Shown: positions 34,467-61,477 of the stretch, one piece after another
Numbering within the stretch: position 1 is the first letter of the stretch
Layout of the letters: every line of letters begins with the position of its first letter
NCBI GenBank assembly: GCA_043815505.1
Contig: JBDRIV010000004.1
Coordinates: forward strand, 186,051 to 250,050
From: a bacterium
GTDB lineage: Bacteria > Patescibacteriota > JABMPQ01 > JBDRIV01
Direction: 5' to 3'
Length of the DNA: 64,000 bases
Translations under genes and position numbers: made by a program
The notes under the pieces: model-generated
What the model saw: only the letters and a program-made list of their open reading frames with translations
What the model was told of the DNA's origin: nothing
Database searches by the model: none

Positions 34467-37400
34467 TTAAAATTCACTAGTTGTTATATTCAATCCCTCT
34501 CTCAAATTTTTATTATACACAAAGAAGCTCATTAAAACATTTGTCTCGGCATCAAAAGTCTTTACATGTGGACCTCCTCCCTGATCAGGAGCTGTTACTA
34601 TTTCTGCATTACCATCATTATTCATGTCGCCAACCGCTACATTAACTCCGCACGAATAATTTGAATCATAAGCAAAGAACGAAGATAATAATTTTGCATT
34701 TAACGGATTGAACACTTTAACATTAGGACCGTTTCCAGAGGAAACACCGGTTACAACCTCTACTGTTCCATCTCCTGTGAGATCTCCGGCTGCCACAGTA
34801 ACTCCGGTAAAATAATTTGTGCTATCATATGCTTTCCATTCTGATACTAATTCGGCTTGGTGATTAAATATTTTGACAGTAGCTGGAAAATAACCACCAC
34901 CACCAGAACCAACAATAATTTCTTCCCTGCCATTATTTGATGTATCACCAGTAGTTATGTATCCAGCTGCTCTTCCTGTATCTGGATAGGCAAAAAAACT
35001 ACTAAGCAGCTTTCCGGTTTGATCCCAAATTTTTACGTGAGCAGGAGCAGCTTTAGCAGGAATTGTAATTATTTCCTTTTGGCCATTACCATTTGTGTCT
35101 CCAACAGCCACTTTTATTCCAAAACGGGCATTGGAGCTATATGCCATGAATTGACTAAGAAGAACCCCATTTTGATCAAATATTCTAACTTGAGGTCCTC
35201 CTCCTCCACCTGGACCTGTTACTATTTCTGTTTTGCCATCCATGTTTAAATCTCCTGCCGCTACATTTACCCCGAATCGATAATTTGAATCGTAGGCAAA
35301 AAAAGTGGTTAATGGATCACCATCTTGATTATCAAAAACACTAACTTGGGGGCCATCACCCTGTCCGGCACCAACAACAATATTATGTGAACGTTTTAAA
35401 TTGGTCATGGAAACTGACGCCGATTTCGTATTATTTGCAAGATTACTATCTTCGCCATCACTAGAAACACTTACTGTGATAATAAAATCATTGGCTAATG
35501 AATTTGCATTTACAATAATTGTGATTTCATTCGCTTCTGCGCCGCTATCTATTATTGATGTCTCACAGGTTACTTCACCGTTCAATTCTTCACAGCTCCA
35601 GCCTGTTCCTGATGCTGAAATAAACGTGGAGTTTGGAGGTAGAATTATGGAAGCAACAACGTTTTCCGCTTCATCAGGACCATTATTGCTAATACTTATT
35701 CCGTAAGTAATGTTGTTTGTTGTCGGGTCCGCGCTAGTATTAATTTCCACTTTTAAATCAGTATTTTTATACGCTACCAAAACACTTTTTGAGGTAGTAT
35801 TATTTGTAATATCATCATCAGTGGTATTTGAACTTATAGTGGCTTGAGTAGTAATTGTCCCCTCTGTTTGAGGAGCTTTTATTTTTATAGAAATATTGTC
35901 ATTAGATGATGATTGCTTATTGAATATATTAATATTTTTTTCTTGCCTCCATATATCTACACTTGAACTGGCAGACAGAGATATTCTTGTACAAGTAACT
36001 TTCAAATTTGACTCATAACAACTCCAGCCGGTGCCAGAAGCAGAAACATATGTTGAACCTGATGGTAAGGTGGTTGTAGAAATTAAATTTTCGGCTTCAT
36101 TGGGACCATTATTGGTAATACTAACTGTATAAATAATTGAATCTCCCGGCTCGACGGATGAAGCGCTAGCATTGATTGATGTAGAAAGATCAGCTGATAA
36201 ACTATCATCATCTAATATAGTGTATGTATAATTTGTATTGGTGGTGGAATCACCACTCGCATCTCCAACTACAACATAGCTCGATGGATTCTGAAGGCCA
36301 AATATTATTGTTTCATTATTTTCTACTTTAGTATCGTTTTTAATAGTCAGAGGAATTGTCACCTTGGTTAGGGTTGTATAATCTGCGTTTGGTATAGTAA
36401 TTGTTTTGGGACTTGAAAATGTATAATCTGTTCCCGTTGTTGCCGTACCTCCCGTAACAGCTACTTTTATTGTTAATGTGCCACTATAACCAGTGGCATC
36501 TCCACCACTGACACTTAATTTAAATACTGGACTGGTTACCGTCTCTGACTTACTGTTTGTTGCCTTGGTAAATTCTACTGTTAAACCATCGTCCTCGGTA
36601 ATAGTAGCAGTTGCCGTTGATCGATTCGTTGTATCTTCATCGGCATCACCACTAATAGCACCGGCAGAGAAATTGTTCAGAGAAAGATTGATTGTTTCAT
36701 TCCCTTCCAAAAGATTATCGTCGGTTACAGTAATTGAAAAAGCTACAGATTGAACAGTTGTGTAATCTCCTATCGGGATTGTAACAGATATTGGACCAGC
36801 GACATAATCTGTTCCTGCTGTAGCAGTGTTATCAGCTAATACCACGTTCACACTTTCACTAGCTGCTATTATTCCTCCGCGCACACTAAGATTACCACTA
36901 ATAGAACCACTCGCCTCTGCTTCTGAGTAGGCTATATTATTGAACTCTACTAAAAGATAACTATGATCAGTAAAGTCTACTACGAAATCAGTCTTTGAAT
37001 AATTCGTAACATTGGCGGCCGAAGTTGTGTTGGTAAAGGCTCCATCTAGCCAGACTATTTCCAAATTAGATATATCGTCAGCATCAGTATGACTAGTAGC
37101 ATTACCAGTGAGGGAAACTTCTATGGTTGTTGCTCCTGTTCTATTTACCGAAGCACTTAGCCCTGCTGGTACATTGTTAACTTGAACATGAACACCAAGA
37201 GTTATTGGATCTACAAAGGTATCACCTGTTAAGGTAGCTGTGGTTGGATCATTGCCTATAGAGCCATCATTCGCTGCGTCCTCTGTAAAAGTAGTAACAT
37301 CATAAGCAATGCTTGGTTGATCAGCAAAGTCTACACCCAGAGAACTGGAAGCTGGTCCAGTAGCATTATCTACATTGGCTGCTGTAGTGGTATTGGTGAA

Positions 37401-40400
37401 AGCGCCATCTTGGAAAGCAAAAGTAATGTCAGCTACATCATCGGCATCTAAGTGATTGGTAGCATTACCAGTCAGAGTTAGAGTGGCTACTGTATCTCCT
37501 GCTGACAGGGTAATAACAGCGGTGAGTCCAGTTGGCACATCAGCTAATACCAGTTCTGTGGTTTCATCAAGAATATCATCAGTGTCTGTATCTTGATAAG
37601 TGTCACCTGTTAGAGTAGCAATAATTGATCCGGTGACGGAGCCATCATTGGCTGTGGCTTCAGTAAACCCTGCTCCTGTATAAGCAATGCTTGGTTGATC
37701 AGCAAAGTCTATTTGACCTGTATTGTCAGTATAACCAACAACATCACTGGCCGTTGCATTGTTTGTAAACACACCATCGACGAAGGTAACTGTAAGGTCA
37801 GCTACATCATTTGCATCCAAATGATTGGTGGCATTACCGGTGAGAGTAAGAGTTGCCACAGTAGAACTGGTTTTGGTTAACACTGCCGTTAAACCGGTTG
37901 GAACATTGGCTACAGTATAGTGGGTGGTTTCAGTAAAAGGATTACCATTGGCAATTCCAGCTATGTAGGTATCATTTGTTAGAGTGGCCGTTCTTGATCC
38001 CGTAACTGATCCATCATTCGCTGTGGCTTCGGTAAAATTTCCTGACCAGGCGATACTTGCCCCCCCTTCAGTAACAATAGAAAAATAATCACCGTCGGTA
38101 ACTGCGACGGTGTTCTTAGAATAAATGTTATCTGCTGCAATGGCATCGCCATTGCTCGCATCATCATAAAGTTGATACTCTATAGCACCACTAGAAAAAT
38201 CGCCATCAGCATCAACGAGAAGATAATAATTTGTTTGTGCAGCGGGAAGATCAAAGTCTGCGTCCTCTGCATCAATAGTAAATGTCACCGTACCAACATC
38301 GCCCGTTTCTTGAATTTTCCATACCCGGTCTAGAATTTCCCGACCTGTGGGGGCACCAGTTGTACTAAAGGTGGCAGCGCCATTATCATTTCCCCAAATA
38401 AGAGATTCTAGACTACCCTGATCTGTAGCTGAACCAATAGAAACAATTCCGTCTGCGTTTTCTGATTTTGAGGTAACTTGATTCAGTTCAGAATCAGTGT
38501 CTTCCTCTACACCCGCCACATCATTATGATAAGTCTGATTAACAGAGGCATCCCAAACTACGGTGTCATCACTTAAGACATAATCTCCTTCGTGAATACC
38601 ATCGGCGTTGGGAGCTTCAAAAGTGGTAGAGTCACCGTTATTGTCATTGGAGAGAGTAAGACCATATTTTAGCGCTAAATAGGATTCAATTTTTTGTAGG
38701 TCAGCTAAAGATACAGCATCGTCATAAACAATAGCTTCGGCGATTTTTCCGTCGAGGAAATTGGCGGAACGGTAAGCTCCGATTTGTAAATTACTAGTAG
38801 TACCTAAAAAACCCCCTGAATCAAGACCAGCATTTGCTTCCTCTTTCCCGTTAATATTAATAATCGTATCCACTAAACCGTTCCCATGCAACCCTGTCCC
38901 AATATAAGGCGTACTATCAAGTTGATCATTGGTGGTTTCTATGTCAAAGCTAGTACCATTACGTAAATTCATTCTTGCTGACCCGAGCCCAAAATTCATT
39001 GAATGGTTGCCGTTTGCTGGAGTTGATCCAGCAGAAATAAGGTTACCACTATAACTAGTATTATCACGAATAAAAACAACTACCTTAGTATAAGCATTAC
39101 CGTTGGGAATTATCCCTGCAGTTACCGTTTCCATATAATCGCTATTAGCGCCATTAAATTCTATTACGGGGTTAAAATTTATTAGATCAGTGGTTCCACT
39201 TTCATAAGTTGGTTCATTCCCACCAGGTGCTGAAACATCATTGCCGTAACCTGATTGATCTGACCAGCTGGTCAGATTGGCTCCGTCGATGACGGTGGAG
39301 GTTCCTGTATTTGCTTTAAGCCACCATTTTATGTTAGTTAAGACACCTCCAGGTGTACCGCTAATAAAATCAATAACAGCATCATCTTTCTCGTATCTTC
39401 CCACATCAATCGCTGACGCAGTTGTAGTAAAGGCGCCGTCTTGCCAAGTTATAGTTAGATCACTAACATCATCTAAATTATTATGATAAGTAGCATTACC
39501 AGTGAAAGTTAGGGTAGCAGTATCCCCAGGACCACTAACATTCATGACAGCAGTTAATCCAGCTGGTTTATTGGTCAAAATAAAGTGAACTCCTTCAGTT
39601 AGAGTACTGCCACCGTTAACAAAAGTGTCATCAGTGATAGTAGCTACAACTGATCCGGTAACTGACCCATCATTATTTGCACTTTCAGTGAAAGATCCGG
39701 AGTAAGCAATAAAGGGATCCATGGCTTCATCTATAAACGGATCGGCTGGTAAGTTATAAGTGCTGGAATCAGTTGGCACAGTTTCTCCGGCAGCGTCGTT
39801 GCTATCACCCAAACTAACTGTTACTGTTCCGGTGGCAGCCGCAGATAAAGTTATAGTAATTTCATCAGTAGCGGTACGATCAATACTATCGATGGCAACT
39901 GGGGTACCATTATTTTTAACTTCAAATCCTCCTAATCCAGATGTTGGCAAAAGAGGTAAATTGTCATCAGAGAAAGACATGGTAACCAAAGTATTAGTGT
40001 CATCAATAAAAGCATTGAGTAGTATGGGGCCACGACCATCAGAACCACCATAAAAATGTTCTTCTAGTGCTGCCCACCAACGATCAGCTGCAGTTTGTCC
40101 TTCAGCATCAGTAGTAAGATGAACACCATCAGCTAATGGCCCAAGATCATAGATTTGAGGTCCATAAAGAATACCAGCATTGTCATCCCAAGCTTCTATG
40201 GTAGCAGCACGGATACCACTAACATAATTGGGAGCTGTCCCTACTTGCCCGATTACTGCTGCCACCATAGGAGGAGCGCCGGGAAGATCAGCCGCCATGT
40301 CAGAAGCAACTTGATCAAACGCGGTATTATAATCATTTTGACTAACATTATTATTAGCATCTCGTTCTCCTTGATGCCACAAAACAGCTTTGACTGCATT

Positions 40401-43400
40401 AACTCCAGAATCAGTAACTTGCTGCTGCATATTCTCGTACTGTCCTGATCCAGTACCACCTTTTTTCCAATCTTCATCAGGAGTAACTAAACCAGTTGCA
40501 CTATCAGCAGTAGTAATAAAAGCAACTGGTACATCTTGGTTACCCATAATATGAGTTGCTAGTAATGGCCAAACGGAACCTTTTTCAGCTGGGTCAGGAT
40601 CGGTAGGGTCATTACCTTCTAACCAATTATCATCCTCGTCAAAAACAGCTGCTTTAAGTGAGGCATGGGAATAGCTTTTTTGGTTGGTTAATCGACCTTC
40701 AGCATTTGACTGGCCTGCTACAACATAAACATCACCGATGCCAACATCAGCGACTGTGTCTTGAGTATCAGTATCTGATTCACATCTTACTATCAAACTA
40801 CCTTGACCAGCTGATTGACTAGATAACGTTCCACTAAAAGTACCGCCTGCTAAACTACTGTCAATAGTAGCGTAGGCACCACCATTAAAAGAAGCTTCAG
40901 CATTATCACTATCACAGCCAACATAAGTACCAGTGATAGAAATATCAGCCTCATCACCACCATCGCGTTGATAAGTTTGATACTGAACTGGACTGGTAAT
41001 AATAAGAGAGGCTGAAGTTATAAAAGAAAAGTAATCACCATTATTAAAATCTATGGTTGCTTCTAAATTATCACCATTAACTGAAAGTGTGACTTCGCGG
41101 TCAGATGTGGCAAAGCTAGGATCAGTGTGTACTACCATTTTTTCCAAGTCCGCTACTGCAGCTGACGGAATAGATACGGTAATAGTCCCAACATCACCTG
41201 TCTCTTGAACTTTCCAAACACGAGCAACACGTTTGTTAGAAATCCCGTTATAACTTGCTGTAGCTGCTAGCGCGCCGCCATCATTACCCCAAATAAGTGC
41301 TTCTCCATCGTCTTGCCCAGTAGCACCAGATATGATAATTTTATCTTCACCATCACTATCATCAGCACTGGATTGAGTTTGGTCTAGAGCTGAAGTATCA
41401 TCTTGAGCAATTCCCGCCACATCATTATGATAAGTCTGATTAACAGAAGCATCCCAAGCTACGGTGTCGTCACTTAAGACATAATCTCCTTCGTGGATAC
41501 CATCGGCGTTGGGAGCTTCAAAGGTGGTAGAGTCACCGTTATTGTCATTGGAGAGAGATAAACCATATTTTAAAGCCAGATAAGATTCAACCTTTTGAAG
41601 ATTAGCTAGTGTTATGTCATCATCATAAATAATAGCTTCAGCAATCTTGCCATCGAGGAAGTTGGCGGAACGATAGGCGCCAAGCTGAATGGTGCCATTA
41701 CCATTGAAAGCGTGGGCACCAGTATTATCACTGACTTCCTCTTTACCATTAACATCAACAATAGCATCGGTAATGCCAGCGCCATATTTTGCCACGCCAA
41801 TATAGGGAGTAGCGATGCTTTGTGCTGTTGCGGATCCGATGTTTAGAGTAGTGATATGATATAAGCGCAACTGACTTATACCTGGTCCATACAAGAAAGC
41901 GTGAGTATCAGGTGTTGCCCCAGAGGAAATAAGGTTGTTGGCATAACCAGTGCTTTTAATTATATATACAGCTATTTTTGTATAAGCATTGTTACTACCA
42001 ATTATTCCCGTGGCGGCGGTTCCTAAATAATCGCTATTAGCGCCAGTAAATTCTATTACTGGATTAAAATTTATTAAATCAGTAGTTCCACTTTCATAAG
42101 TTGGTTCATTTCCCCCTGGCGCTGTGACATTATTGCCGTTACCTGATTGATCTGACCAGCTGGTTAGATTAGCTCCGTCGATGACGGTGGATGTCCCCAT
42201 ATCAGCTTTGAGCCAGAGTCCTAAATTTGTCATTACTCCTCCTGGTCCATCAGTTGGTGGTGTATCATTAGCAATCTGCCAAAAGCGATCTTCTTTTATT
42301 TTGATGGATTTTTCTTCTAGATTCATTGAAGGTGAAGAATTTTCATTTTTAAGTTCAAGAGGACCAATAGTATAGTATTCTGGAGAAATATCAGGAGCAT
42401 TAAAATCATAATTATACATTAAAGTATCACCTGCTACTGCCGAAACATTCCAAATAATTGTTTTACTATCTTTGGCTTCAGATATTCCTATAGCTCCTTC
42501 ATTAGAAAGATTAGATATCTCAAAACTATCTGGAACAACATCAACAATATTTCCCTGATAATCTTCGTTAAATTTAACCTCGAGAGTCATAGGAGTTGGT
42601 CCTAGAGGATAGTTCCTGGTAGCTGAAGTTCTTCTAACAACAAAATCAGGTTTATCAACTTCATCAAAAACATTGATTTTTGAACTAATAGTTTTTTCAC
42701 CGCTACCAATATCAGCTGTGAGTGTCATTAAGTATTCCCCTGCTTCGGTAAAAGTGTAATTGGCTTGGTAATCGGGAATAATGTGTCCTACTTCAAGAAC
42801 CTCACATTCTCCGGTATTTTGCACTTCTGGTTGATCAATAATTTGGTTAGGAGTGGTAATTTCTAGTCTTACTTCAGCATTACAAACTGGTACGCCAAAA
42901 TCATTAAGAACACCTATGTGAACATCCGCTTTTTCCCCAATCTGATAAGTATCTTTGTCAGTATTAACAGCCAAAACTCCCCAAACAAAGTCTTGAGTGA
43001 ATATTTTTGTATTTTTATTTTTTTGACTAGAAACAGTTGCTTCTAAAGTATAAAGTCCCGGAGTAAAAGATCGCAATGGTTTTACTATCATTACTACTGA
43101 TCCAGCTTGAAAACGAAGGTGGTCATTGGGAATGGTAAATTTATTTCCTTTAGTGTCAGTAACTGTGGCATCAACTTCCGCTTCGGTATCGTCAATAAGA
43201 ACAGTTAAAGCTTCCTCCTTAGTCAACTCATCTCCCGTCTTTTTGTCTGGAATACTATTTTCAGAAAGTTTAAATGCTGTTTCACCAGTAACTAAATTTG
43301 GAACATCAGCAATAACCTGGGAAGATGATATGTATTCCTTATCACTGACAAAATTATCGTTAAAAACGAAAAAATAAATGCTTCCCAAAATCAGCAGTAA

Positions 43401-43508
43401 TACACCAAAAATAATTGGTAAAATTGTATTTTTATTCTGGCCTATCTCCTCCTTACTAAAATAACCAAAAATGGTTTGAATTTTTCCTCCCACTTCAGTA
43501 TTTTTCAT
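34467..43508 (-). CDS. giant (3013 aa) surface adhesin-like multidomain protein (domains listed under evidence)
   Basis: N-terminal TM. Two LamG-like copies ('LWLKA..GTSTVIDGANLTSWSDQSG'). 'VVAGQSNAEGR' plus 'VLWHQGERD' SGNH/sialate-O-acetylesterase motifs. Calx-beta 'LADNTATAGTDY...LLEGNETI'. DUF11-like 'TVSITNNGPNEAEN' (x2). Seven or more FG-GAP-like 'FAYDSNYRFGVNVAAGDLNMDG' repeats at the C-terminus. Confidence 0.85.
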   Translation of the reverse strand: MKNTEVGGKIQTIFGYFSKEEIGQNKNTILPIIFGVLLLILGSIYFFVFNDNFVSDKEYISSSQVIADVPNLVTGETAFKLSENSIPDKKTGDELTKEEALTVLIDDTEAEVDATVTDTKGNKFTIPNDHLRFQAGSVVMIVKPLRSFTPGLYTLEATVSSQKNKNTKIFTQDFVWGVLAVNTDKDTYQIGEKADVHIGVLNDFGVPVCNAEVRLEITTPNQIIDQPEVQNTGECEVLEVGHIIPDYQANYTFTEAGEYLMTLTADIGSGEKTISSKINVFDEVDKPDFVVRRTSATRNYPLGPTPMTLEVKFNEDYQGNIVDVVPDSFEISNLSNEGAIGISEAKDSKTIIWNVSAVAGDTLMYNYDFNAPDISPEYYTIGPLELKNENSSPSMNLEEKSIKIKEDRFWQIANDTPPTDGPGGVMTNLGLWLKADMGTSTVIDGANLTSWSDQSGNGNNVTAPGGNEPTYESGTTDLINFNPVIEFTGANSDYLGTAATGIIGSNNAYTKIAVYIIKSTGYANNLISSGATPDTHAFLYGPGISQLRLYHITTLNIGSATAQSIATPYIGVAKYGAGITDAIVDVNGKEEVSDNTGAHAFNGNGTIQLGAYRSANFLDGKIAEAIIYDDDITLANLQKVESYLALKYGLSLSNDNNGDSTTFEAPNADGIHEGDYVLSDDTVAWDASVNQTYHNDVAGIAQDDTSALDQTQSSADDSDGEDKIIISGATGQDDGEALIWGNDGGALAATASYNGISNKRVARVWKVQETGDVGTITVSIPSAAVADLEKMVVHTDPSFATSDREVTLSVNGDNLEATIDFNNGDYFSFITSASLIITSPVQYQTYQRDGGDEADISITGTYVGCDSDNAEASFNGGAYATIDSSLAGGTFSGTLSSQSAGQGSLIVRCESDTDTQDTVADVGIGDVYVVAGQSNAEGRLTNQKSYSHASLKAAVFDEDDNWLEGNDPTDPDPAEKGSVWPLLATHIMGNQDVPVAFITTADSATGLVTPDEDWKKGGTGSGQYENMQQQVTDSGVNAVKAVLWHQGERDANNNVSQNDYNTAFDQVASDMAADLPGAPPMVAAVIGQVGTAPNYVSGIRAATIEAWDDNAGILYGPQIYDLGPLADGVHLTTDAEGQTAADRWWAALEEHFYGGSDGRGPILLNAFIDDTNTLVTMSFSDDNLPLLPTSGLGGFEVKNNGTPVAIDSIDRTATDEITITLSAAATGTVTVSLGDSNDAAGETVPTDSSTYNLPADPFIDEAMDPFIAYSGSFTESANNDGSVTGSVVATITDDTFVNGGSTLTEGVHFILTNKPAGLTAVMNVSGPGDTATLTFTGNATYHNNLDDVSDLTITWQDGAFTTTASAIDVGRYEKDDAVIDFISGTPGGVLTNIKWWLKANTGTSTVIDGANLTSWSDQSGYGNDVSAPGGNEPTYESGTTDLINFNPVIEFNGANSDYMETVTAGIIPNGNAYTKVVVFIRDNTSYSGNLISAGSTPANGNHSMNFGLGSARMNLRNGTSFDIETTNDQLDSTPYIGTGLHGNGLVDTIININGKEEANAGLDSGGFLGTTSNLQIGAYRSANFLDGKIAEAIVYDDAVSLADLQKIESYLALKYGLTLSNDNNGDSTTFEAPNADGIHEGDYVLSDDTVVWDASVNQTYHNDVAGVEEDTDSELNQVTSKSENADGIVSIGSATDQGSLESLIWGNDNGAATFSTTGAPTGREILDRVWKIQETGDVGTVTFTIDAEDADFDLPAAQTNYYLLVDADGDFSSGAIEYQLYDDASNGDAIAADNIYSKNTVAVTDGDYFSIVTEGGASIAWSGNFTEATANDGSVTGSRTATLTNDTYIAGIANGNPFTETTHYTVANVPTGLTAVLTKTSSTVATLTLTGNATNHLDANDVADLTVTFVDGVFTNNATASDVVGYTDNTGQIDFADQPSIAYTGAGFTEATANDGSVTGSIIATLTGDTYQDTDTDDILDETTELVLADVPTGLTAVITLSAGDTVATLTLTGNATNHLDADDVADITFAFQDGAFTNTTTAANVDNATGPASSSLGVDFADQPSIAYDVTTFTEDAANDGSIGNDPTTATLTGDTFVDPITLGVHVQVNNVPAGLSASVNRTGATTIEVSLTGNATSHTDADDISNLEIVWLDGAFTNTTSAANVTNYSKTDFVVDFTDHSYLLVEFNNIAYSEAEASGSISGNLSVRGGIIAASESVNVVLADNTATAGTDYVAGPISVTIPIGDYTTVQSVAFSITVTDDNLLEGNETINLSLNNFSAGAISGDADEDTTNRSTATATITEDDGLTVEFTKATNSKSETVTSPVFKLSVSGGDATGYSGTLTIKVAVTGGTATTGTDYTFSSPKTITIPNADYTTLTKVTIPLTIKNDTKVENNETIIFGLQNPSSYVVVGDASGDSTTNTNYTYTILDDDSLSADLSTSINASASSVEPGDSIIYTVSITNNGPNEAENLISTTTLPSGSTYVSASGTGWSCYESNLKVTCTRISLSASSSVDIWRQEKNINIFNKQSSSNDNISIKIKAPQTEGTITTQATISSNTTDDDITNNTTSKSVLVAYKNTDLKVEINTSADPTTNNITYGISISNNGPDEAENVVASIILPPNSTFISASGTGWSCEELNGEVTCETSIIDSGAEANEITIIVNANSLANDFIITVSVSSDGEDSNLANNTKSASVSMTNLKRSHNIVVGAGQGDGPQVSVFDNQDGDPLTTFFAYDSNYRFGVNVAAGDLNMDGKTEIVTGPGGGGGPQVRIFDQNGVLLSQFMAYSSNARFGIKVAVGDTNGNGQKEIITIPAKAAPAHVKIWDQTGKLLSSFFAYPDTGRAAGYITTGDTSNNGREEIIVGSGGGGYFPATVKIFNHQAELVSEWKAYDSTNYFTGVTVAAGDLTGDGTVEVVTGVSSGNGPNVKVFNPLNAKLLSSFFAYDSNYSCGVNVAVGDMNNDGNAEIVTAPDQGGGPHVKTFDAETNVLMSFFVYNKNLREGLNITTSEF

Positions 43509-43797: not shown

Positions 43798-44353
43798 TTA
43801 TTTAAAATGTCTGGGGTATTTAAAATATGTTTGTACAATACCAAAAATTGAATCTCCGACCCATATTTCACCATTCTTTACCATCTCTAATGCTTTTTTG
43901 GAAGAAACTTTTAATACCTCAATCTCTTCTGTCATATCTAAATTCTGTTTGGAATTAAATTCCAGATCTTTGGCATAATAACAATGAGTTACTTGTTTAG
44001 TTTTTGTGGGATTACTTGATATTTTTCCTATAAATTCTAAATTGTCTTCTGTTGTTTTTAATACCCACCTCTTCTTCTAGTTCTACTAAGGCTGATTCTT
44101 TTAAAGTTCTATTCTTTTGTTGAAATCCTCCTGGCAATTCAATCATTGTTTCTCCTACTGCGTGCTTATACTATTTAACTAAAACAATCTCATTATTAGT
44201 TGTAATAGGCAACACCATTACAACATTACCTAGTGGGGAGAAAAAATAATCATCAATAATAGTTCCCTCTAGTAATTCAACCTCATGGCGAATAACAGGA
44301 AACCATTTACTTGGTGAAACGTCTTCTTCTTTTATTACTTTCCATTTTTTCAT
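43798..44353 (-). pseudogene. NUDIX hydrolase (ADP-ribose pyrophosphatase-like) disrupted by an in-frame TAG and a frameshift
   Basis: The N-terminus 'MKKWKVIKEEDV...VMVLPITTNNEIVLVK' stops at TAG. The frame then resumes 'YKHAVGETMIELPGGFQQKNRTLKESALVELEEEVG'. After a frameshift it continues 'LEFIGKISSNPTKTKQVTHCYYAKDLEF...EVLKVSSKKALEMVKNGEIW'. Confidence 0.6.
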
Positions 44354-44566: not shown

Positions 44567-46609
44567 CTACCTGTTATTTTCGTTCCCAATCTCTGCGTTC
44601 AAGTTTACATCATAGAAGTTTTTATATGAACCTCCGACTTGTTGTGTCCAAGTCCATTCCACTGGCCCACCATAATTCCACCACGTCTGATACCTCAATG
44701 GGTATTTACAACCACCTCTTTCCGCATCATAGTTGTCATCACTTGTTTGCCATGTTTCTCCCAAATCAGGTGACACCAGCATTTTAGGACGGCTTCTGTC
44801 ACCACAACTTCCCCCAGATATACCCGTGTCTTTACTGCTCCGAGATGCAACATATATTGTTTGACCGTCTGCTCCCAACCCAGGACTTGGATCACTATAA
44901 CCGCATGTCTCTTCAATTAATTGCCATTCAGTCCAAGTATCTCCTAAATTATCAGATTGTTTAAATACTAAGCCAGTATATGTCGCCGTACTTTGAGCAA
45001 ACACAAAGAGTTGATTAGCGCCTACTGTAAGAATTGCTGGATTGCTGGTGTTTTCATCTGACAAGGAAGTTCTTGTCCATGTTTCACCTTGATTGGATGA
45101 TTTGGCAAACCACAACTCTCTTTCTGGAGATGCCATTTCAGAATAAGTTGCCACCAACACATTTTCAGAAGTAACCTCAAAATGAGGGTAATAGAATATA
45201 CCACTGCCAGAACTTACGGTATATGGATCTGACCAGTTGTTTCCTCCATCTATTGACTTAAGTAAATATATTGGCTCATTAGATGAACCCCAATGAGTTG
45301 CAACATATAACGTTCCTGATTCATCTACGGTAGCATTCACGCTTCTATATACCCCAGTTGATGATTCTGACAAACTGGAATTCGTATATATTGTCTGTGG
45401 TGAAGGAGGTGTTTCATTATATCCAAATTTGACCATTTTCAAATTATCACCATCTCTATAAAAATGATAAACCATTTCATTGGGCCCAGAAATTAAACTG
45501 CTGGAGTAAATACCATCAGTATCTATGCGTGTCCAAGTTTCACCGTTATCAGTGGAACGATAAGTATGGTCATAACTACCAGCACTGGCCAAGGTAACTA
45601 TAGTATCATTAATTCTAACCATTCTACGCCCACCAGAGTTATAATGGCAGTTATTTGAACTTATAGTTGAATCAATAATGATTGGTTCGTGTTCATACCA
45701 ACCGCCTACTATCTCTTCACAATCCTCAGGACAAGTCTCGTGATTTTCCCCTTCCTCACAAACATCATTACCACATTCATTAGTAACTTCTTCACAATCA
45801 AAGTCCTCCTCGTCAACAAAGCTATCACAGTCATTATCTAAGTTATCTGTGCATTCAGTTTCTGTGGTGGTACATCTTTGCTCTAAGACTTGGTAGACTA
45901 CGTTACCCACTTTAGGGCGATAGTAAGAGCCTTTGTTGAGACGGAAGCCAAATTGGACATATTGCCAGTTGTAGGTAACGGTAGAAGGAACAGAAATAAC
46001 ATGAAAACCATTGGTAGAAATGGAAGTTGAATACCAAGGGACAATACTATCATCGGTAGTAGCATCAAACTGTTCGTCTGTTCCTCTAAGAAAGAATTCT
46101 AATTCATTGTTACTACCTAAGAAATTGCCAAATAAGGAAGAATTAAGAGGTGAAAGTAAGGCGGTGAAAGCTACCTTGGAGAGACCAGTAGCAGCACTAT
46201 TTTCATCACCGAAGGAAGCGGTGTCTATTACCTCTGAAGTTACCTTAACTATGCCATTATTATTTTCAATGGCGTTGTTGTAACGAGGTAGTTGTTCGTA
46301 ATCTCCTTCTATATTAAAAGTAGTCATATCATAAGGAGTGTTGTGTTTAATATATTTACCGGGGACATAGACGGTTGGTTCTCCTGATAGTTCGTCGGCT
46401 TGGAAGTCTGATTCTCTGATTTCTTCTTTGGGGATAACGGGGAGAACGGCTGCTCCAGCTACGGCTAGAGCAGAGATTATAAAGACACTCCAGACCATTA
46501 GCTTGAGGCGTTTTTTGGTTTTGGTTTGAGCAGTTGTTTGCTCTGTTTGGGTTTGTTTGACCATCATATTTTTGTTGTTATTTGTTTTATTTTGATTATT
46601 TTGAGACAT
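44567..46609 (-). CDS. secreted protein, paralog B of the 'MSQNNQNKTNNNK' leader family: shared N-terminal module + 'DNDCDSFVDEEDFDCEE' motif + C-terminal BNR/Asp-box beta-propeller
   Basis: Five Asp-box repeats: 'STDNGETW', 'SIDGGNNW', 'SSNQGETW', 'SDNLGDTW', 'SPDLGETW'. Confidence 0.7.
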   Translation of the reverse strand: MSQNNQNKTNNNKNMMVKQTQTEQTTAQTKTKKRLKLMVWSVFIISALAVAGAAVLPVIPKEEIRESDFQADELSGEPTVYVPGKYIKHNTPYDMTTFNIEGDYEQLPRYNNAIENNNGIVKVTSEVIDTASFGDENSAATGLSKVAFTALLSPLNSSLFGNFLGSNNELEFFLRGTDEQFDATTDDSIVPWYSTSISTNGFHVISVPSTVTYNWQYVQFGFRLNKGSYYRPKVGNVVYQVLEQRCTTTETECTDNLDNDCDSFVDEEDFDCEEVTNECGNDVCEEGENHETCPEDCEEIVGGWYEHEPIIIDSTISSNNCHYNSGGRRMVRINDTIVTLASAGSYDHTYRSTDNGETWTRIDTDGIYSSSLISGPNEMVYHFYRDGDNLKMVKFGYNETPPSPQTIYTNSSLSESSTGVYRSVNATVDESGTLYVATHWGSSNEPIYLLKSIDGGNNWSDPYTVSSGSGIFYYPHFEVTSENVLVATYSEMASPERELWFAKSSNQGETWTRTSLSDENTSNPAILTVGANQLFVFAQSTATYTGLVFKQSDNLGDTWTEWQLIEETCGYSDPSPGLGADGQTIYVASRSSKDTGISGGSCGDRSRPKMLVSPDLGETWQTSDDNYDAERGGCKYPLRYQTWWNYGGPVEWTWTQQVGGSYKNFYDVNLNAEIGNENNR

Positions 46610-46765: not shown

Positions 46766-47074
46766 CTAGAGATTTAATTCTTTTTCAGTAACAATACCCT
46801 TTGCAATTAAAACTTGCTTGATCTTTTCAACACGAGCTGCAATGATTTTAGAATCTTCATACCACCTTTCGACAGTTTTAATTAGATTGTCTATTGAGTT
46901 AGTAAGATTATCTATCTTCTTGCTTAAAGGTTTAACCTCTGTTTCAAAGCGCCTATTTACCTCTTCTGTTAAACTGTCAATTTTATTATCAACGCTGTCA
47001 AACTCTTTTTTAAATATCCTTGCTAGTCCTTCAAGGCCTTTGTCCAGTTCTTTTTTAGTTAGTGGTTCTGCCAT
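46766..47074 (-). CDS. small coiled-coil protein (cassette gene, paralog 1)
   Basis: The N-terminus 'MAEPLTKKELDKGLE' and ~150 bp of upstream DNA are identical to those of 47884..48225. Confidence 0.6.
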   Translation of the reverse strand: MAEPLTKKELDKGLEGLARIFKKEFDSVDNKIDSLTEEVNRRFETEVKPLSKKIDNLTNSIDNLIKTVERWYEDSKIIAARVEKIKQVLIAKGIVTEKELNL

Positions 47075-47883: not shown

Positions 47884-48225
47884 TTATGTGAGGTTTAATT
47901 CTTTTTCCGTGGCAATTCCTTTTTTTATTAGAACCTTCTTCATCCTTTCAATTCTTGCGGCAAGAATTTTAGACTCTTCTTGCCACTCTTCAACTTTCTT
48001 AACGTATTTATCTAGCATATTTATAAATCTGTCAAATTTATCATCAATTGCTTTAAACTTTTTGTTCATTTCTAATTTTAGAGAATCTATTTGCATATCT
48101 ACACCATCAAGTCGCTTATCAATACCGTCAAAACGCTTATCAATTCTATTAAATTCTCCTTTAAAAGTTTGTGCTAACTTTTCAAGGCCTTTGTCCAGTT
48201 CTTTTTTAGTTAGTGGTTCTGCCAT
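47884..48225 (-). CDS. small coiled-coil protein (cassette gene, paralog 2)
   Basis: Same N-terminus and promoter (48248..48275) as 46766..47074. Confidence 0.6.
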   Translation of the reverse strand: MAEPLTKKELDKGLEKLAQTFKGEFNRIDKRFDGIDKRLDGVDMQIDSLKLEMNKKFKAIDDKFDRFINMLDKYVKKVEEWQEESKILAARIERMKKVLIKKGIATEKELNLT

Positions 48226-56238: not shown

Positions 56239-59200
56239 TTATGTGTTCAGTAGCGATACAATGTCTTTGATTATTATTCCCTTGTCATTCCTCTGATTCG
56301 TCCAATCTGAATATTTTATTCTATAAAAGTCCCACCCAGCAACCTCTAATCTTTCCTGTCTATCAAGGTCATTCTGTACATATATTGATAATTCATCGTC
56401 AAGTTCATCTTTGAAATGAGTTGGGCCATCACATTCAAAAGCGATTTTTTGACCATTGCTCTTATTATGTATCACGAAGTCAATTATATAACCACAACTG
56501 TTAACCTGGCTACGAATAGAGTAATCTTTGCCAAGCTCACTTCTCAAATAATCGTATACATTCTCTTCGAATTTATTTGTACATTTTATTTTCTCGTTAG
56601 TGAGATCGCCAATCTCTCCATTTTTATTAACATATTCTAAATATCTTTTTATCCAAATACCGCCAGGAATCTCAGAAATCGGCATACTTATAAAGCAATG
56701 AACCTGCTTTTTAGCTCTAGAGAAAGCAACATTTACTCGTCCCGTATTTATTGCTCCTTGAATATCTCCGCCCTCTCCAGTTAATGGTACGTATTTTCGT
56801 TTATCTTCTTTATTTTTTATTACAAATGAATAAAGAACTATGTCCTTCTCATCACCTTGAATTCCCTCAATTATACTTATTTTATAATTATCCTCTTCTT
56901 CTTTGTATCCTGCTTCTTCAAATACTTCTCTAATGTAAGATGCCTGTGCGTTAAAGAATGTTAAAATCCCAACAGACATCTCTGAGCACCGTTTTTCTTT
57001 TCTAATTTCTCCAAAATATTTAAGTATTGCTTTTGCTTCACTAACATTTATCTTGTCTGAAATCTCCTCACTTAAATCTACCTCTACTTGATTAATGGTC
57101 ATTATTCTGTTTGTATTCTTGTATGTTATATAGTTATCGTTTACAACTACCAGACCTTTGTTTTTTGGTTTATAGAAATACTTATTACTAAAACCTATTA
57201 ATTCTCTAGGTGACCTATAATGATATCTGAGAGATATCATTTGAGTTCCCCTTAATTCCGAAATATCAAGCACAGATTGCACCGCATCACCAGTTGCTTT
57301 AATTTTTAGTTCGTCAGGAATATTATATTTTTTAGCCAACTCATCAAAAAACTTATTTGATTTAAACCGTGTAGTACCATCTTTCATTTGCTCACTATCA
57401 CCAACGAATATAACCTTTTTCCCCCTAAACATTGAGGGTAATGTGTATGCTATATTGCATTCGGAAGCTTCGTCAAGTATTACAATATCAAAAATATTGG
57501 GGTCCAGTGGAATAAGACGACTCGCATCATCTAGTTCCATAACCCAAGTAGGTATAAGATCAACTATTGTTCTAAAATTTTCTGGGTTCTTCCTGAGGTC
57601 ATCAAAGGTTTTAAAGGCTCTTTTTGATTTTCTGAATGCTTTTGCTAATTTACTTATAATTGCTCTATTTTTTTGAATTTTCCACTTTTCAAACAATTTA
57701 TTATTAATAATATTTTGCAAATAGTTTGCAATATGATCATTCTTTCCCTTTCTTGCATTCTTAATCTTTTTGGAAATATCATTTATATTGAATCTTGTCG
57801 ATTTCTCCAATTCTCTTCTTTGCTTTTCTAATTTGTATACTTTAATAACATTATCTTTTGCGCTATCAAAATTCCTTTTTGACTTTTCAATAACTAGACT
57901 ATTAAACAGCTTGAAGCTATTTTCAGATAAGCCACAAGTCTCTAGACTCTTCTTTACTACTGTTTTTAATTCCTTAATTTTGTTTTTATTCTCGCAAAAT
58001 ACTAGATAGTTTTCTAACTCCATTAACTCAATTTCTTGTGATTTTCTTGAAGACTCTTTATTTAGTGCTTCATCAATATAGTCAATAATTTCCTTAGGTA
58101 GTTTTTCTCGTGTTCGTTTCAACCTTACTTTACGCTTAAGATTATTAAATGCTCTTATTATATTTGAATTTCTGTCGTAGCCAGTTTTATGTACATCACT
58201 TAAAATACTCTTAATGGCGACAGAGAAACCTTTTACTGTTAAATCATAGTTGTGAAATAATTCATCAAATTTATTCTTATGGCTAGAAGTATGATATTCT
58301 TCTCTCTCTTCTTGGATTCTATTGACTAATGTCCTATTATTGTTTATTTCTTTCCACATCTTCTCATCGAAAGTATCTGTGAGCTTAGATACATTTCTAA
58401 TTGGAACAATAAAACTCTCTAGATCACTAATTTTCTGAGATTTTGAGAAAATTTCTCTTTGGACCTCTACTACGCTATTAAACAGTTTTTTTAATTTATT
58501 TAGTTCTGTAGATTCTTTGTTAATTAGTTTTTTAGAATCATCGTGTAAATCATTCTTATTATACTCGATAAGTTTTTTTCTAATATCAGTATTAATTCCG
58601 ATGTTTTCCATATGTGCAGCTAAACTAGTTAGCATATTTGCCACACCATCTTTTTCATCAATTTCGTTAACCTGTGCTGAAGACAAATTTGGAATATAAC
58701 CAAAAAGGTATGCAACATTAAGTTCCTTTAGCTTGTCCTTCACTACTTTTACTGCTTGTGATTTTTGGCTCACAAATAACACTCTCTTTCCAGTAGCTGA
58801 ATAATGACATATGAGATTTGCTATTGTTTGAGATTTTCCAGTCCCAGGAGGACCCTGAATAATAGAAGCTTTGTTTTTTGATAAACCAAGAGATCTATAT
58901 TGTGACTCATCATAAGGAAATGGGAAATATACTTCCTTGTCGGTGACACTGTCACCAAAGCCATCGAATTCATCATCCCAATCCTCCGTCCAGCTGGATA
59001 AAGAGGTTTCATTAAGATCCTTTTCATCAACATTTATCATATTCTGGAGATCTTCAGCCAGGAAATAATTTGACTTTGAACTCAGTGCTATTTGCATTTC
59101 TTCTAATGAAAAGGATTTCTCATCATATATTGCTTCAGTTGTTTTTAGAAGTGCTTTTGTTTTATGCCATATATCAATAAATACTTTGTCATCTGTTATA

Positions 59201-59805
59201 GGTATATTAAGATCGCCCTTATCTTCAAGTATTTTTATTTCTTCAATCAATTGATAAAAAAGATTTTCACCTAACACATCCTCTAATAGACTGGTATTAA
59301 CTTGTACTTCCGTATTGCTTGTATATATATGGTACTTACCCCTAGATTTTTTTTCAATATGAATTGGCATAGAAAACAATGGAAACCTATCAACTCGTTT
59401 ACTAAAATCTTCTGGTAAATCATCATCCGTATCGTTCGTATCGTCATTTTCTAAAACTGGTAACTCAATTTCAAAGAAACCAAAGTTTAAGACTATTTGT
59501 TTTATATACTCATTATTACGATACTTGCTATATATATCCTCAACTTTACTTGCAATACTCTTCTCCTTCTCATATTGTTCTGAGTCTTTTTCAGTTACTT
59601 GTTTTGGATCGAGTGAATAAAAAATATCTAATTTTAGTAATTCTTCTAAATGACCGTCTGTATCACCATTTAGAAGTCCTATAAGTGACACTTGCTCTTC
59701 CGAAATAGACACAAAGTTTTTTCTTTGAGATGCAAAATTTCTCTGACGAGCTAACTTAACGTAATCAAGACAGTATTTGATATAGTTTTCAAGATTGTCA
59801 TTCAT
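56239..59805 (-). CDS. Upf1/DNA2-like superfamily-1 helicase (COG1112; AAA_11/AAA_12) fused to a C-terminal DUF559/Vsr-like endonuclease-fold domain, preceded by a ~300-aa N-terminal region
   Basis: Walker A 'IIQGPPGTGKSQT', Walker B 'IVILDEASEC', 'GDSEQM', 'IEGIQGDEKDIVLYSF', 'NVAFSRAKKQVHCF'. C-terminal 'IIDFVIHNKSNGQKIAFECDGPTHF...ERLEVAGWDFYRIKYSDW'. Confidence 0.8.
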   Translation of the reverse strand: MNDNLENYIKYCLDYVKLARQRNFASQRKNFVSISEEQVSLIGLLNGDTDGHLEELLKLDIFYSLDPKQVTEKDSEQYEKEKSIASKVEDIYSKYRNNEYIKQIVLNFGFFEIELPVLENDDTNDTDDDLPEDFSKRVDRFPLFSMPIHIEKKSRGKYHIYTSNTEVQVNTSLLEDVLGENLFYQLIEEIKILEDKGDLNIPITDDKVFIDIWHKTKALLKTTEAIYDEKSFSLEEMQIALSSKSNYFLAEDLQNMINVDEKDLNETSLSSWTEDWDDEFDGFGDSVTDKEVYFPFPYDESQYRSLGLSKNKASIIQGPPGTGKSQTIANLICHYSATGKRVLFVSQKSQAVKVVKDKLKELNVAYLFGYIPNLSSAQVNEIDEKDGVANMLTSLAAHMENIGINTDIRKKLIEYNKNDLHDDSKKLINKESTELNKLKKLFNSVVEVQREIFSKSQKISDLESFIVPIRNVSKLTDTFDEKMWKEINNNRTLVNRIQEEREEYHTSSHKNKFDELFHNYDLTVKGFSVAIKSILSDVHKTGYDRNSNIIRAFNNLKRKVRLKRTREKLPKEIIDYIDEALNKESSRKSQEIELMELENYLVFCENKNKIKELKTVVKKSLETCGLSENSFKLFNSLVIEKSKRNFDSAKDNVIKVYKLEKQRRELEKSTRFNINDISKKIKNARKGKNDHIANYLQNIINNKLFEKWKIQKNRAIISKLAKAFRKSKRAFKTFDDLRKNPENFRTIVDLIPTWVMELDDASRLIPLDPNIFDIVILDEASECNIAYTLPSMFRGKKVIFVGDSEQMKDGTTRFKSNKFFDELAKKYNIPDELKIKATGDAVQSVLDISELRGTQMISLRYHYRSPRELIGFSNKYFYKPKNKGLVVVNDNYITYKNTNRIMTINQVEVDLSEEISDKINVSEAKAILKYFGEIRKEKRCSEMSVGILTFFNAQASYIREVFEEAGYKEEEDNYKISIIEGIQGDEKDIVLYSFVIKNKEDKRKYVPLTGEGGDIQGAINTGRVNVAFSRAKKQVHCFISMPISEIPGGIWIKRYLEYVNKNGEIGDLTNEKIKCTNKFEENVYDYLRSELGKDYSIRSQVNSCGYIIDFVIHNKSNGQKIAFECDGPTHFKDELDDELSIYVQNDLDRQERLEVAGWDFYRIKYSDWTNQRNDKGIIIKDIVSLLNT

Positions 59806-59929
59806 ATTATTCTAGCATTTAATATCCTTTTGATTCATACTCTAAAATTACCACCAATTCATATATTGATCAAATGAAAAACGGGTGGAGCTTTTTAGGC
59901 TTCACCCGTGTTGTTTGTTGTAGGTATTC

Positions 59930-61477
59930 TTATTGCACGCCCATCACGATACAAGCATCTGTGTCTGTATCACCAGAGGGCGGATAAGGAGGTTGGTTAT
60001 ATGGTGAAGGTGTAATGTCTTCACCAAAAAGTGTGAACACATTGTTCCCAAACACACTGCCGGATCTCGGAAGAGTTGCGCTGAAATGATACGAGAAGTT
60101 GTTGAAGCTAGTGAGGGTTTTCGTACCCTGCTTCCAATTATCAAAAACCGTACCATTTGCCAAATCTACTCGTATTTTGGCATATACTGTTCGAGGTGAA
60201 TCGAAGTGCTTGGTGAGCAATACGTAGAAATCAACATTGAAAGGAAGGACCCCAGCTGGAGGTAGGCATTCGAGATTTACGGAGATTCTTTCTGTGCCAG
60301 GATTGAAAGTATCGAATACATAAGCTGACCCTGCAACGTTTATACTGGCACTATCTCGGTGAGCTCCAACAAGTGCATTATATCCATCAAGTGCTACTGC
60401 GGAGCCAAACCAAGCATCTTCAGTGAAGTCCGAAGGGATAAGTTTGTTTTCTTCAGTCCATTCTGTTCCATTCCGCTTGAACACATAGGCATCTTCATAG
60501 TGAGTTCCAATGACGATATAATCACCGTCAATAGATAAACTCCAACCGAAACTATCCCAATCCTGTCTATCAGAAGCCATTAATTCGGCTTCTTCCGTCC
60601 AGACAATGCCGTTTCTGTGGTAGACATATGCTGAACCTTTATAGCCATCGGTGCCTGTTGCTCCGATAACGGCGTAGTCACCATTTATGGAAACGACGTG
60701 TCCAAAGTAGTCATACGTCAGTCCATTAGATGCAGTAAGTTTTGCTTCCTCTGTCCAAGTTGAGCCTTCTCTGTGAAAGATGTAGGCTGAACCTGTGTAG
60801 GAATCATCTGCAACAGCACCGATAACTGCATAATCACCACATATGAACACTGATTGTCCAAAATGGTCATTTGCCACTCCGTCGCTTGCAAGAAGTTTCG
60901 TGTCTTCAGTCCAATCGACTCCGTCAAAACGGAAGATATAGGCTGAGCCTGAATCACCTCCGTTATCGTCGTCAACATAAGCTCCTAATACTGCATACTC
61001 GCCATCAAAATCAACGGAATACCCCAAAGAATCACCAGCTTCTCCGTCAGATGCAAAGAGCTTGGTGTCTTCAGTCCAAGTTATTCCATCTCTTTTAAAA
61101 ACATAGACGGCACCCGCATTAGTAGCAACGTCATCGTCGCCGTGTGTACCTATAAGAATGATGTCTCCATAAATGCTTACAGATGATCCGAAAACATCAT
61201 TTGCCTCACCAAAATTTGGTATAAGTTTTTGTTGTTGAATCCACAATCCATCTTCACGATGGAATACGTAAACTGAACCACCGTCCTGACCAATGTCATC
61301 ATCGTATGTGGCGCCTACTACAGCGTAATCGCCATCAATGTCAACGGAATAACCAAAGTAGTCACCCTCTTGTGCATCAAGAGCAGCCAATTTGGCTGTT
61401 TCGGAGATTTGTCCGTGAGCTACACTACAGCTCACAAAAAAGACTGCTATAAAAACCAAGAGTGCTTTCTTAAACAT
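59930..61477 (-). CDS. secreted FG-GAP / integrin-alpha-like beta-propeller repeat protein
   Basis: Signal peptide. Seven or more repeats of the form 'FG.SV.I.GDYAV(I/V)GA..DD....GSAY(V/I)F' that match the FG-GAP repeat. Confidence 0.7.
   Translation of the reverse strand: MFKKALLVFIAVFFVSCSVAHGQISETAKLAALDAQEGDYFGYSVDIDGDYAVVGATYDDDIGQDGGSVYVFHREDGLWIQQQKLIPNFGEANDVFGSSVSIYGDIILIGTHGDDDVATNAGAVYVFKRDGITWTEDTKLFASDGEAGDSLGYSVDFDGEYAVLGAYVDDDNGGDSGSAYIFRFDGVDWTEDTKLLASDGVANDHFGQSVFICGDYAVIGAVADDSYTGSAYIFHREGSTWTEEAKLTASNGLTYDYFGHVVSINGDYAVIGATGTDGYKGSAYVYHRNGIVWTEEAELMASDRQDWDSFGWSLSIDGDYIVIGTHYEDAYVFKRNGTEWTEENKLIPSDFTEDAWFGSAVALDGYNALVGAHRDSASINVAGSAYVFDTFNPGTERISVNLECLPPAGVLPFNVDFYVLLTKHFDSPRTVYAKIRVDLANGTVFDNWKQGTKTLTSFNNFSYHFSATLPRSGSVFGNNVFTLFGEDITPSPYNQPPYPPSGDTDTDACIVMGVQ

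Follow-up and report, generated by a model that had tools for sequence, protein, structure and literature searches.

What kind of protein is encoded by the 9-kb gene in the middle of this stretch, and how did two similar modules come to lie on either side of an enzyme domain within it? The stretch (the window) comprises 64 kb of contig JBDRIV010000004.1; all positions given here refer to the numbering of this window, and amino acid (aa) positions refer to the 3013-aa gene product. The gene is located at 34467..43508 (stop codon included) on the minus strand, which also holds for all of its parts, and forms a single open reading frame (ORF; genetic code table 11) that stays open for 9 kb across all module junctions. 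An uninterrupted gene of this position and length had been the starting point of an earlier reading of the DNA (the original prediction). The protein begins with a probable signal anchor, an N-terminal hydrophobic transmembrane (TM) helix at aa ~28-49 (43362..43427) that constitutes its sole strongly hydrophobic 19-mer (Kyte-Doolittle value of 2.6). It continues with an N-terminal region, a first module (A1), an esterase cassette, a repeat (R0), a second module (A2), three further repeats (R1-R2-R3), two Calx-beta domains, two DUF11 domains and an FG-GAP region. This agrees with the original domain list (SASA/SGNH esterase, Calx-beta, DUF11, and FG-GAP), which was borne out by a Pfam hidden Markov model scan. 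With an N-terminal TM anchor and, behind it, a long series of extracellular beta-rich domain types, the protein is laid out as a surface protein. The 3013-aa protein contains no LPXTG motif (LPxT[GAN]) and no Pfam match to the sorting domain of the type IX secretion system (T9SS; PF18962), and its end falls inside the FG-GAP repeats. It is strongly acidic, enriched in Thr, Gly, Asp, Ser, and Asn, and displays many putative Ca-binding motifs. The best explanation overall, which we consider moderately probable, is that of a TM-anchored surface protein combining lectin-type modules with a glycan O-acetylesterase, whose gene went through an old module duplication, the fusion of an esterase cassette, and a later gene conversion.

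The two modules constitute the first part of this explanation. A1 (aa 422-831; 41016..42245) was delimited by self-BLAST and by alignment to A2 and consists of a LamG-like jelly roll, a helix, an Asp/Asn-rich loop, and a DUF8202 beta domain. A2 (aa 1386-1815; 38064..39353) comprises the same LamG-like and DUF8202 parts and was defined by an AlphaFold2 model, by Foldseek, and by a match to the phage "virion structural protein" family phrog_10356 (E 2e-11). Two module copies, each including an ALKYGL(S/T)LSNDNNGDSTTFEAPNADGIHEGDYVLSDDTV segment, had been predicted, and the segment was found in both. A search of a 5.8-billion-protein collection returned no full-length relative, so that the window protein is a singleton there; a whole-protein search of GTDB species genomes found no relative, the corresponding search of JGI metagenomes returned weak FG-GAP matches and nothing else, and an exact look-up of the 3013-aa protein returned no contig. 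What the large collection did contain was hundreds of giant proteins (1.7-5 kaa) matching about 14% of the query, namely, the LamG-DUF8202 module. These proteins are annotated with PF26628 (DUF8202), often together with PF13385 (Laminin_G_3); they are mostly from Bacteroidota and carry a T9SS sorting domain, with a few from Patescibacteria or Peribacteria, and the full module of 400-430 aa reaches up to 11 copies per protein. Precomputed annotation assigns PF26628 to the window protein and to almost every module match, and direct alignment backs this assignment. In an alignment of 23 sequences including A1 and A2, residues W11, W30, D32, F66, E206, Y225, K229, Y230, D285, Q292, and W345 (A2 numbering) were invariant, and ESYLALKYG...EGDY...W...HNDVAG was the most conserved motif family-wide, Bacteroidota included.

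An AlphaFold2 model of A2, calculated with 22 homologues, reached a pLDDT of 86.5 and a pTM of 0.90. In this model, a beta jelly roll (residues 1-212) precedes a helix containing the LALKYG motif, an ordered Asp/Asn-rich loop, and a second beta domain. In the PDB, Foldseek matched the model (E about 1e-9; template modelling [TM] score about 0.4) to the HC (receptor-binding) domains of clostridial neurotoxins, the S. sanguinis PilC lectin module, and the lectin domain of T. cruzi trans-sialidase, with a root mean square deviation (rmsd) of 5.2 over 256 columns for PilC (7oa7). The matched jelly rolls are lectin types that bind gangliosides or glycans. Homologous modules of two other large proteins, P0046 and P0089, do match Laminin_G_3 (E 5e-21 and 1e-22, respectively), and because of these matches and the predicted structure, the first half of the module is assigned, on the strength of the model, to the LamG/ConA-type lectin fold. 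The designation "LamG-like" in the original prediction is thereby supported by structure prediction and by homologues, and not by Pfam on this protein. The DUF8202 half (aa 1597-1815, 38064-38720; A1 equivalent, 41016-41621) was also modelled alone (pLDDT 88.5; pTM 0.87). The GAIN domain, its best structural match, was insignificant (TM score 0.36) and was rejected as a relative, and a literature search for DUF8202 returned nothing. According to the model, this half may represent a structurally uncharacterised beta domain that is very common in giant proteins. Given its abundance and a confident model without a structural relative, it would be a worthwhile structural target.

Between the modules lies the esterase cassette (aa 832-1262; 39723..41015), which comprises a small beta-sandwich, a SASA/SGNH esterase, and, at its C-terminal end, a beta domain that weakly matches SWM_repeat, and was delimited by Pfam SASA, standalone homologues, and PDB profiles. 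The SASA/SGNH domain itself (aa 926-1137; 40098-40733) scored 75 bits with PF03629 (cut-off, 24.8; E 9e-21) over 212 of the 226 profile positions, and as far as sequence can tell, membership in the SGNH/SASA carbohydrate O-acetylesterase family is certain. The predicted nucleophile, Ser934 (codon at 40707..40709), is part of a GQSN motif (VAGQSNAEG) that aligns with GQSNMAGR of 2APJ, and the DxxH motif of block V, Asp1127-Gly-Val-His1130 (40119..40130), aligns with DNLHLTT of the same structure. In an alignment with 120 homologues (121 sequences), Ser934 was conserved in 120, His1130 in all 121, and Asp1127 in 108; the oxyanion-hole residues Gly977 (block II) and Gly1047 (block III) were found in 116/121 and 120/121 sequences, respectively, and the block III motif WHQGE corresponds to Q1046-G1047-E1048. 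Absence of the catalytic Ser/His/Asp had been named in the original prediction as evidence that would speak against an enzyme; Ser934, Asp1127, and His1130 are present and conserved, and the esterase is apparently active, judging from these residues. Profile comparison of the cassette with the PDB yielded 2APJ and 1ZMB ("acetylxylan esterase related") as well as the "sialate O-acetylesterases" 9EGA, 7KMM, and 8F9Q. Since the nearest solved relatives are named both acetyl-xylan-esterase-like (CE6) and sialate O-acetylesterase, sialate specificity cannot be inferred; of the predicted SGNH/sialate-O-acetylesterase-like domain, the family assignment stood and the sialate part did not.

The cassette also occurs outside the giant gene. 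Residues 832-1262 matched standalone proteins of 450-750 aa with 42-52% identity over 99-100% of the length. This end-to-end match indicates that a pre-formed cassette is now embedded between A1 and R0. Moreover, the cassette matched the tail-fibre family phrog_4201 (E 1e-11), and P0132, a protein of 669 aa (locus L085, 8001-10010; on a 62-kb contig of Logan accession SRR25158397), displayed 45% identity over the whole cassette. The genes around P0132 form a row on one strand and lack Pfam matches; P0132 itself matches a tail-fibre PHROG, and matches of the preceding gene were to minor-tail as well as tail-fibre PHROGs (E 1e-18 to 2e-21). By these matches, the locus probably represents a phage receptor-binding gene cluster that carries the same esterase cassette. 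A further cassette homologue (P0129) was found in a small-genome bacterial context. Among the ~240 relatives listed of either part, none combined DUF8202 with SASA.

How old is the duplication of the module? The repeated unit measures ~410-430 aa (~1.25 kb), and A1 and A2 are about 58% identical at the amino acid level, with 84% identity over the first 76 residues and less than 40% over the last 130. Their alignment reached 455 bits, compared to at most 200 bits with any other module (32-38% identity). A1 and A2 are therefore mutually closest modules and were duplicated within this gene or lineage. At the DNA level, direct-repeat and BLAST self-comparisons detected two matches, one between 38512-38780 and 41413-41681 (87% over 269 nt) and one between 39108-39354 and 42000-42246 (78-81% over 247-305 nt). 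The original repeat coordinates were close to these, but the near identity that had been read from them was not found: the longest exact run common to both copies is 35 nt. The codon alignment of A1 and A2 gave a Nei-Gojobori (NG86) synonymous divergence (dS) of about 1.2 and a nonsynonymous divergence (dN) of about 0.34. Over most of the module, identical amino acids were encoded by the same codon in a fraction of 0.49-0.54, with 0.45-0.46 expected at saturation from the gene's own codon usage, and outside one tract, 4-fold-site identity was 0.34-0.39, with 0.32 expected at saturation. Synonymous sites are thus saturated and the duplication is old, contrary to the recent event that had been predicted.

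The one tract in which divergence is low spans aa 641-698 in A1 (41415..41588) and aa 1608-1665 in A2 (38514..38687) and encodes the ALKYGL...HNDVAG motif. Within it, 19 of 23 4-fold sites were identical (0.83), compared to 24 of 65 in the background (Fisher p 2e-4), the same codon was used in 36 of 40 consecutive codons for identical amino acids (scan p about 0.001), and dS was 0.17-0.44. Constraint at the protein level does not explain this tract, because the neighbouring stretch, aa 610-640, shows 83% aa identity and yet is saturated at synonymous sites. In the wider 269-nt match, mismatches consisted of 26 transitions and 9 transversions, 23 of 35 fell on third codon positions, and they were symmetric between the copies, a pattern that reads as ordinary young divergence. 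A diversity-generating retroelement target (template and variable repeat) was rejected, as the mismatches were neither adenine-specific nor asymmetric, and a Pfam scan of ~24 larger window ORFs (a part of all ORFs) found no reverse transcriptase. Taken at the level of codons, the ~170-nt tract is a probable short intragenic gene conversion tract, later than the duplication. In terms of genome dynamics, an old duplicated module with a probable conversion patch is nothing unusual.

We propose the following arrangement for the protein. The N-terminal helix would anchor it, with the Ig/MG2-like region, A1, the esterase cassette, R0, and A2 following outward from the membrane; a stalk of beta-sandwich repeats (three R, two Calx-beta, and two DUF11 domains) would extend beyond A2 and hold the FG-GAP propeller at the distal end. 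On another surface, the two lectin-type modules would bind carbohydrates and the propeller possibly other ligands, proteins included, and the esterase between the modules would remove O-acetyl groups from a surface or environmental glycan, for which capsule, O-antigen, peptidoglycan, a teichoic-acid-type polymer, and an acetylated plant polysaccharide are candidates. Binding and editing of the target would thus be united in one protein, as they are in phage tail-fibre esterases and viral haemagglutinin-esterases. In the history that we envisage, the LamG-DUF8202 module was duplicated long ago within the gene or lineage, the esterase cassette, a standalone gene elsewhere, came to lie between the module copies, and the tract encoding the family's most conserved motif would have been homogenized later by gene conversion. 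Giant membrane proteins with DUF11 and integrin-type domains have been proposed as host-attachment factors in the Candidate Phyla Radiation (CPR) (PMC8080830), and ConA-like lectins have been proposed as CPR attachment proteins (bioRxiv 10.1101/2025.02.25.640227). By analogy with these two groups and with phage tail-fibre esterases, contact with a partner cell appears to be the most likely single role, and adhesion to a host is plausible. The protein is a fairly ordinary example of the modular giant "adhesin-like" surface proteins of Patescibacteria (CPR). Host recognition by Patescibacteria outside Saccharibacteria is almost unknown, and lectin modules together with an apparently active O-acetylesterase provide a concrete, testable candidate for what these bacteria bind and modify.

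Several observations weigh against this proposal. The esterase family includes nutritional acetyl-xylan esterases, and by sequence, scavenging would be equally compatible with it. The esterase and the lectin modules occupy the membrane-proximal 60% of the protein, with the propeller at the tip, an arrangement that is not clearly optimal for action on another cell. Laminin_G_3 (PF13385) did not match the window protein, and Pfam scans of isolated A1 and A2, PF26628 included, returned nothing at E<=1. For the DUF8202 half, Foldseek searches of the PDB and BFVD gave no match better than E 0.02. Finally, gene conversion is deduced from a single tract of about 58 codons, and a second candidate tract (aa 433-480) was not significant at 4-fold sites (p 0.23).

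The serious rival, to which we assign a smaller but substantial likelihood, is a cell-bound nutritional esterase of the acetyl-xylan or general polysaccharide type that strips acetyl groups from environmental or dead-cell polysaccharide instead of attaching the cell to a living host, with LamG-DUF8202, Calx-beta, and the other domains serving for carbohydrate binding or as spacers. The closest solved relatives of the cassette include CE6-type 2APJ and 1ZMB, ConA-like modules are often units like carbohydrate-binding modules, and a separate alpha/beta-hydrolase esterase gene (BD-FAE type) is located at 10093-11751 of the window. However, no glycoside hydrolase or sugar-uptake genes were seen beside the giant gene, one of the closest relatives of the cassette is a protein of the phage tail-fibre type, and an architecture of 3013 aa with FG-GAP, DUF11, and Calx-beta domains typifies adhesin-like proteins and not secreted carbohydrate-active enzymes (PMC8080830). 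A bolder version of the partner-cell proposal, rather unlikely in our estimation, holds that the protein is a cellular "haemagglutinin-esterase" built from modules shared with phage tail fibres. It would bind an O-acetylated host glycan and deacetylate it for attachment and release or for exposure of the wall, and the DUF8202 half would be a new fold that determines specificity.

Slightly more doubtful is a structural envelope fibre, similar to an S-layer, that has no specific ligand and whose domains act on the cell's own wall polymers. The N-terminal anchor, the strong acidity, the richness in Thr, Ser, Asp, Asn, and Gly, and the many putative Ca-binding motifs would all suit such a fibre. 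SGNH esterases that de-O-acetylate the cell's own peptidoglycan exist, e.g., the Ape family, which counts in its favour. Nevertheless, the cassette belongs to the SASA/CE6 branch and not to Ape1-type peptidoglycan esterases, and the protein is not a conserved part of the envelope in related genomes but a singleton.

The remaining rivals concern the repeat and not the function, and both are very improbable. The original prediction of a recent ~2.9-kb tandem duplication, with a ~965-aa unit copied head to tail, drew on similar stretches whose starts are indeed 2892-2901 nt apart (both DNA matches), with strand and frame in common, and the 174-nt tract described above is about 95% identical. Nevertheless, self-comparison confined the homology to aa 422-831 and 1386-1815. 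The ~1.25-kb module is what is repeated and 2.9 kb is the spacing; in the sequence after A2, nothing at the offset of a tandem unit corresponds to the intervening ~555 aa (1.66 kb; the esterase cassette plus R0, aa 832-1385). R0 is similar to R1-R3 at different offsets, and this similarity is no closer than that among R1-R3 themselves. Together with the dS of about 1.2, the near-saturated background of 4-fold sites, and the 35-nt limit on exact shared runs, this refutes the tandem duplication as stated. An assembly artefact, either the false expansion of a repeat or a chimera of two strains or genes, could be considered since the source is probably a metagenome-assembled contig and the gene occurs in no second genome among the collections searched, but it is unlikely because A1 and A2 have different residues at about 40% of positions and no exact shared run beyond 35 nt (an artefact would give identical copies), the frame is open for 9 kb through all junctions, and multi-copy LamG-DUF8202 arrays are the norm in the family.

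The remaining parts of the protein flank the modules and the cassette. The N-terminal Ig-like/MG2-like region (aa 50-421; 42246..43361) gave weak Pfam matches to Invasin_D3, PKD, and MG2. About 12 other large proteins, each with one LamG-DUF8202 module, carry ahead of it a ~300-aa region that is 39-49% identical to residues ~115-419 of the window protein. The genome context is CPR-like for two or more of them, P0046 and P0089 included; Pfam scans of four of the large proteins sharing this region found the esterase in none of them. R0, the first copy of a ~120-aa beta-rich repeat (aa ~1263-1385; 39354..39722), shows 49-51% identity to R1-R3. The latter are three tandem ~120-aa repeats (aa 1816-2182; 36963..38063) supported by self-BLAST (47-65% identity) and by phmmer domain matches. 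The consensus reads ...FTEATANDGSVTGS...TLTG(D)TF...VPAGLTAV...TLTLTGNATNH.DADDV.DLT..F.DGAFT..., and the repeat is present in 4 copies here and in 12 copies in the T9SS-domain protein P0043 (3223 aa). Sequence comparison with the PDB yielded nothing significant for the repeat, and Pfam nothing convincing; choice_anch_X was rejected as its family (19.8 bits, below its cut-off). Two Calx-beta domains follow (aa ~2183-2425; 36234..36962), with PF03160 matching in two stretches (aa ~2186-2421; E 1.2e-12) and an internal repeat. Two DUF11/B_ant repeat domains (aa ~2426-2700; 35409..36233) were identified by PF01345 (E 8e-24; aa ~2440-2699) and by TIGR01451 of NCBIfam (E 4e-12). The C-terminal FG-GAP region (aa 2701-3013; 34470..35408) shows internal repeats with a period of about 52 aa, matched Pfam FG-GAP (44.5 bits; cut-off, 22.1) and FG-GAP_3 (28.4 bits), and contains four Ca-type GDxNxDGxxE motifs. 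From its sequence, five full repeats plus a split one probably form a 6-bladed beta-propeller.

The organism itself is Paceibacteria-like and belongs to the Patescibacteria, judging from the translation factor TypA/BipA encoded in the window. Its top matches were in a metagenome-assembled genome (MAG) labelled "Patescibacteria group bacterium" (82% identity) and in a Candidatus Colwellbacteria MAG (78%), followed by matches to MAGs labelled Paceibacteria/Parcubacteria and Saccharibacteria. An episymbiotic bacterium had been assumed from the outset, and placement in the Patescibacteria/CPR makes this context reasonable. With genes for TypA, ABC transporters, and a DEAD-box helicase, the window is part of a cellular genome, and no phage genes lie near the giant gene. 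Rfam and tRNA scans detected no RNA gene in the window. Its GC content is about 35% (about 33-37% over most of its length) and rises to 41-42% at 36001-42000, in the middle of the giant gene. Comparable bumps were observed at 12-14 kb (a radical SAM gene) and at 60-62 kb (an FG-GAP_2 gene), and these may reflect amino acid composition or a foreign origin of modules.

Upstream of the giant gene, three consecutive short ORFs (60, 44, and 45 aa) occupy 43798-44353 on the minus strand. Joined, they matched Pfam NUDIX (E 2.5e-4; 21.5 bits with a cut-off of 21.1) and, by this match, are probably a frame-broken NUDIX hydrolase pseudogene. Beyond it, 44567-46609 (minus strand) encodes a second surface protein of 680 aa. 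A TM helix at its N-terminus is followed by an acidic linker rich in Cys (CTDNLDNDCDSFVDEEDFDC...), and its C-terminal part is a BNR/Asp-box propeller in which five SxDxGxTW boxes occur (BNR_2, E 5e-11). Compared with the PDB, this protein gave weak matches to dispase autolysis-inducing protein only and none to a sialidase; with the NUDIX pseudogene lying between the two genes, we do not claim a sialidase-esterase gene pair. Paralogous coiled-coil ORFs of 102 and 113 aa at 46766-47074 and 47884-48225 (minus strand) start with MAEPLTKKELDKGLE and end with ...KGI(V/A)TEKELNL; they gave only non-specific coiled-coil Pfam matches. Plus-strand ORFs near 46.6 and 48.9 kb contain NRP(S/P)VYCLL-like peptide strings, and these strings suggest a repeated DNA element around the coiled-coil ORFs. 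Farther away, 56239-61477 (minus strand) includes a gene for a 1188-aa superfamily-1 helicase (AAA_11/AAA_12) with a C-terminal REase_MTES_1575/DUF559 nuclease-like domain, beside which a 515-aa protein of seven FG-GAP_2 repeats (E 1e-112) is encoded.

With which known systems can the giant protein be compared? In fold, the closest are clostridial neurotoxin HC and the S. sanguinis PilC lectin module, the best Foldseek matches of the A2 model, which have the lectin-type jelly roll in common with it. At a TM score of about 0.4, an rmsd of 15 A for two-domain matches, and 9-17% identity, this represents a resemblance in fold only and not family membership, and unlike that of neurotoxin HC, the second domain of the module is not a beta-trefoil and is without a structural match. 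The SASA/CE6-type esterases (PF03629; 2APJ, 1ZMB, 9EGA, and 7KMM) share the GQSN Ser, the block II Gly, QGE, and DxxH with the window cassette. In contrast to these enzymes of 260-750 aa, the window enzyme is part of a 3013-aa surface protein, and its identity to any solved structure is low.

The multi-module giants with DUF8202 and Laminin_G_3, which are mostly Bacteroidota T9SS cargo (e.g., P0005 and P0007) and include proteins of Patescibacteria (P0046, P0089, and P0028), contain the same ~410-430-aa module with 32-38% identity. The Patescibacteria subgroup also has the ~300-aa upstream region in common with the window protein (39-49% identity). The window protein differs from these giants by an N-terminal TM anchor in place of the T9SS C-terminal sorting domain, by its two modules split by an esterase cassette, an arrangement not seen among the relatives listed, and by the added R, Calx-beta, DUF11, and FG-GAP regions. 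The loci of P0089 (L087, 8001-14294) and P0046 (L088, 8001-13502) are orthologous, because both divergently adjoin a MiaB-like radical-SAM gene, which is absent beside the window gene. The giant membrane proteins of Vampirococcus lugosii (PMC8080830) are likewise from the CPR, exceed 1400-4000 aa, have a predicted membrane location, combine DUF11 with integrin-type (FG-GAP) domains, and have been proposed to act in host recognition and attachment. The likeness is one of domains and not of sequence comparison; V. lugosii belongs to the Absconditabacteria, whereas the organism studied here is Paceibacteria-like, and neither an esterase nor DUF8202 was reported there. Phage tail-fibre and tailspike proteins (phrog_4201, phrog_10356, and P0132) are the last group: although the window protein is membrane anchored and encoded in a cellular region rather than being part of a virion, it shares with them the matches of its esterase cassette and of A2 and, as we propose, a common logic of binding and deacetylating glycans on a surface.

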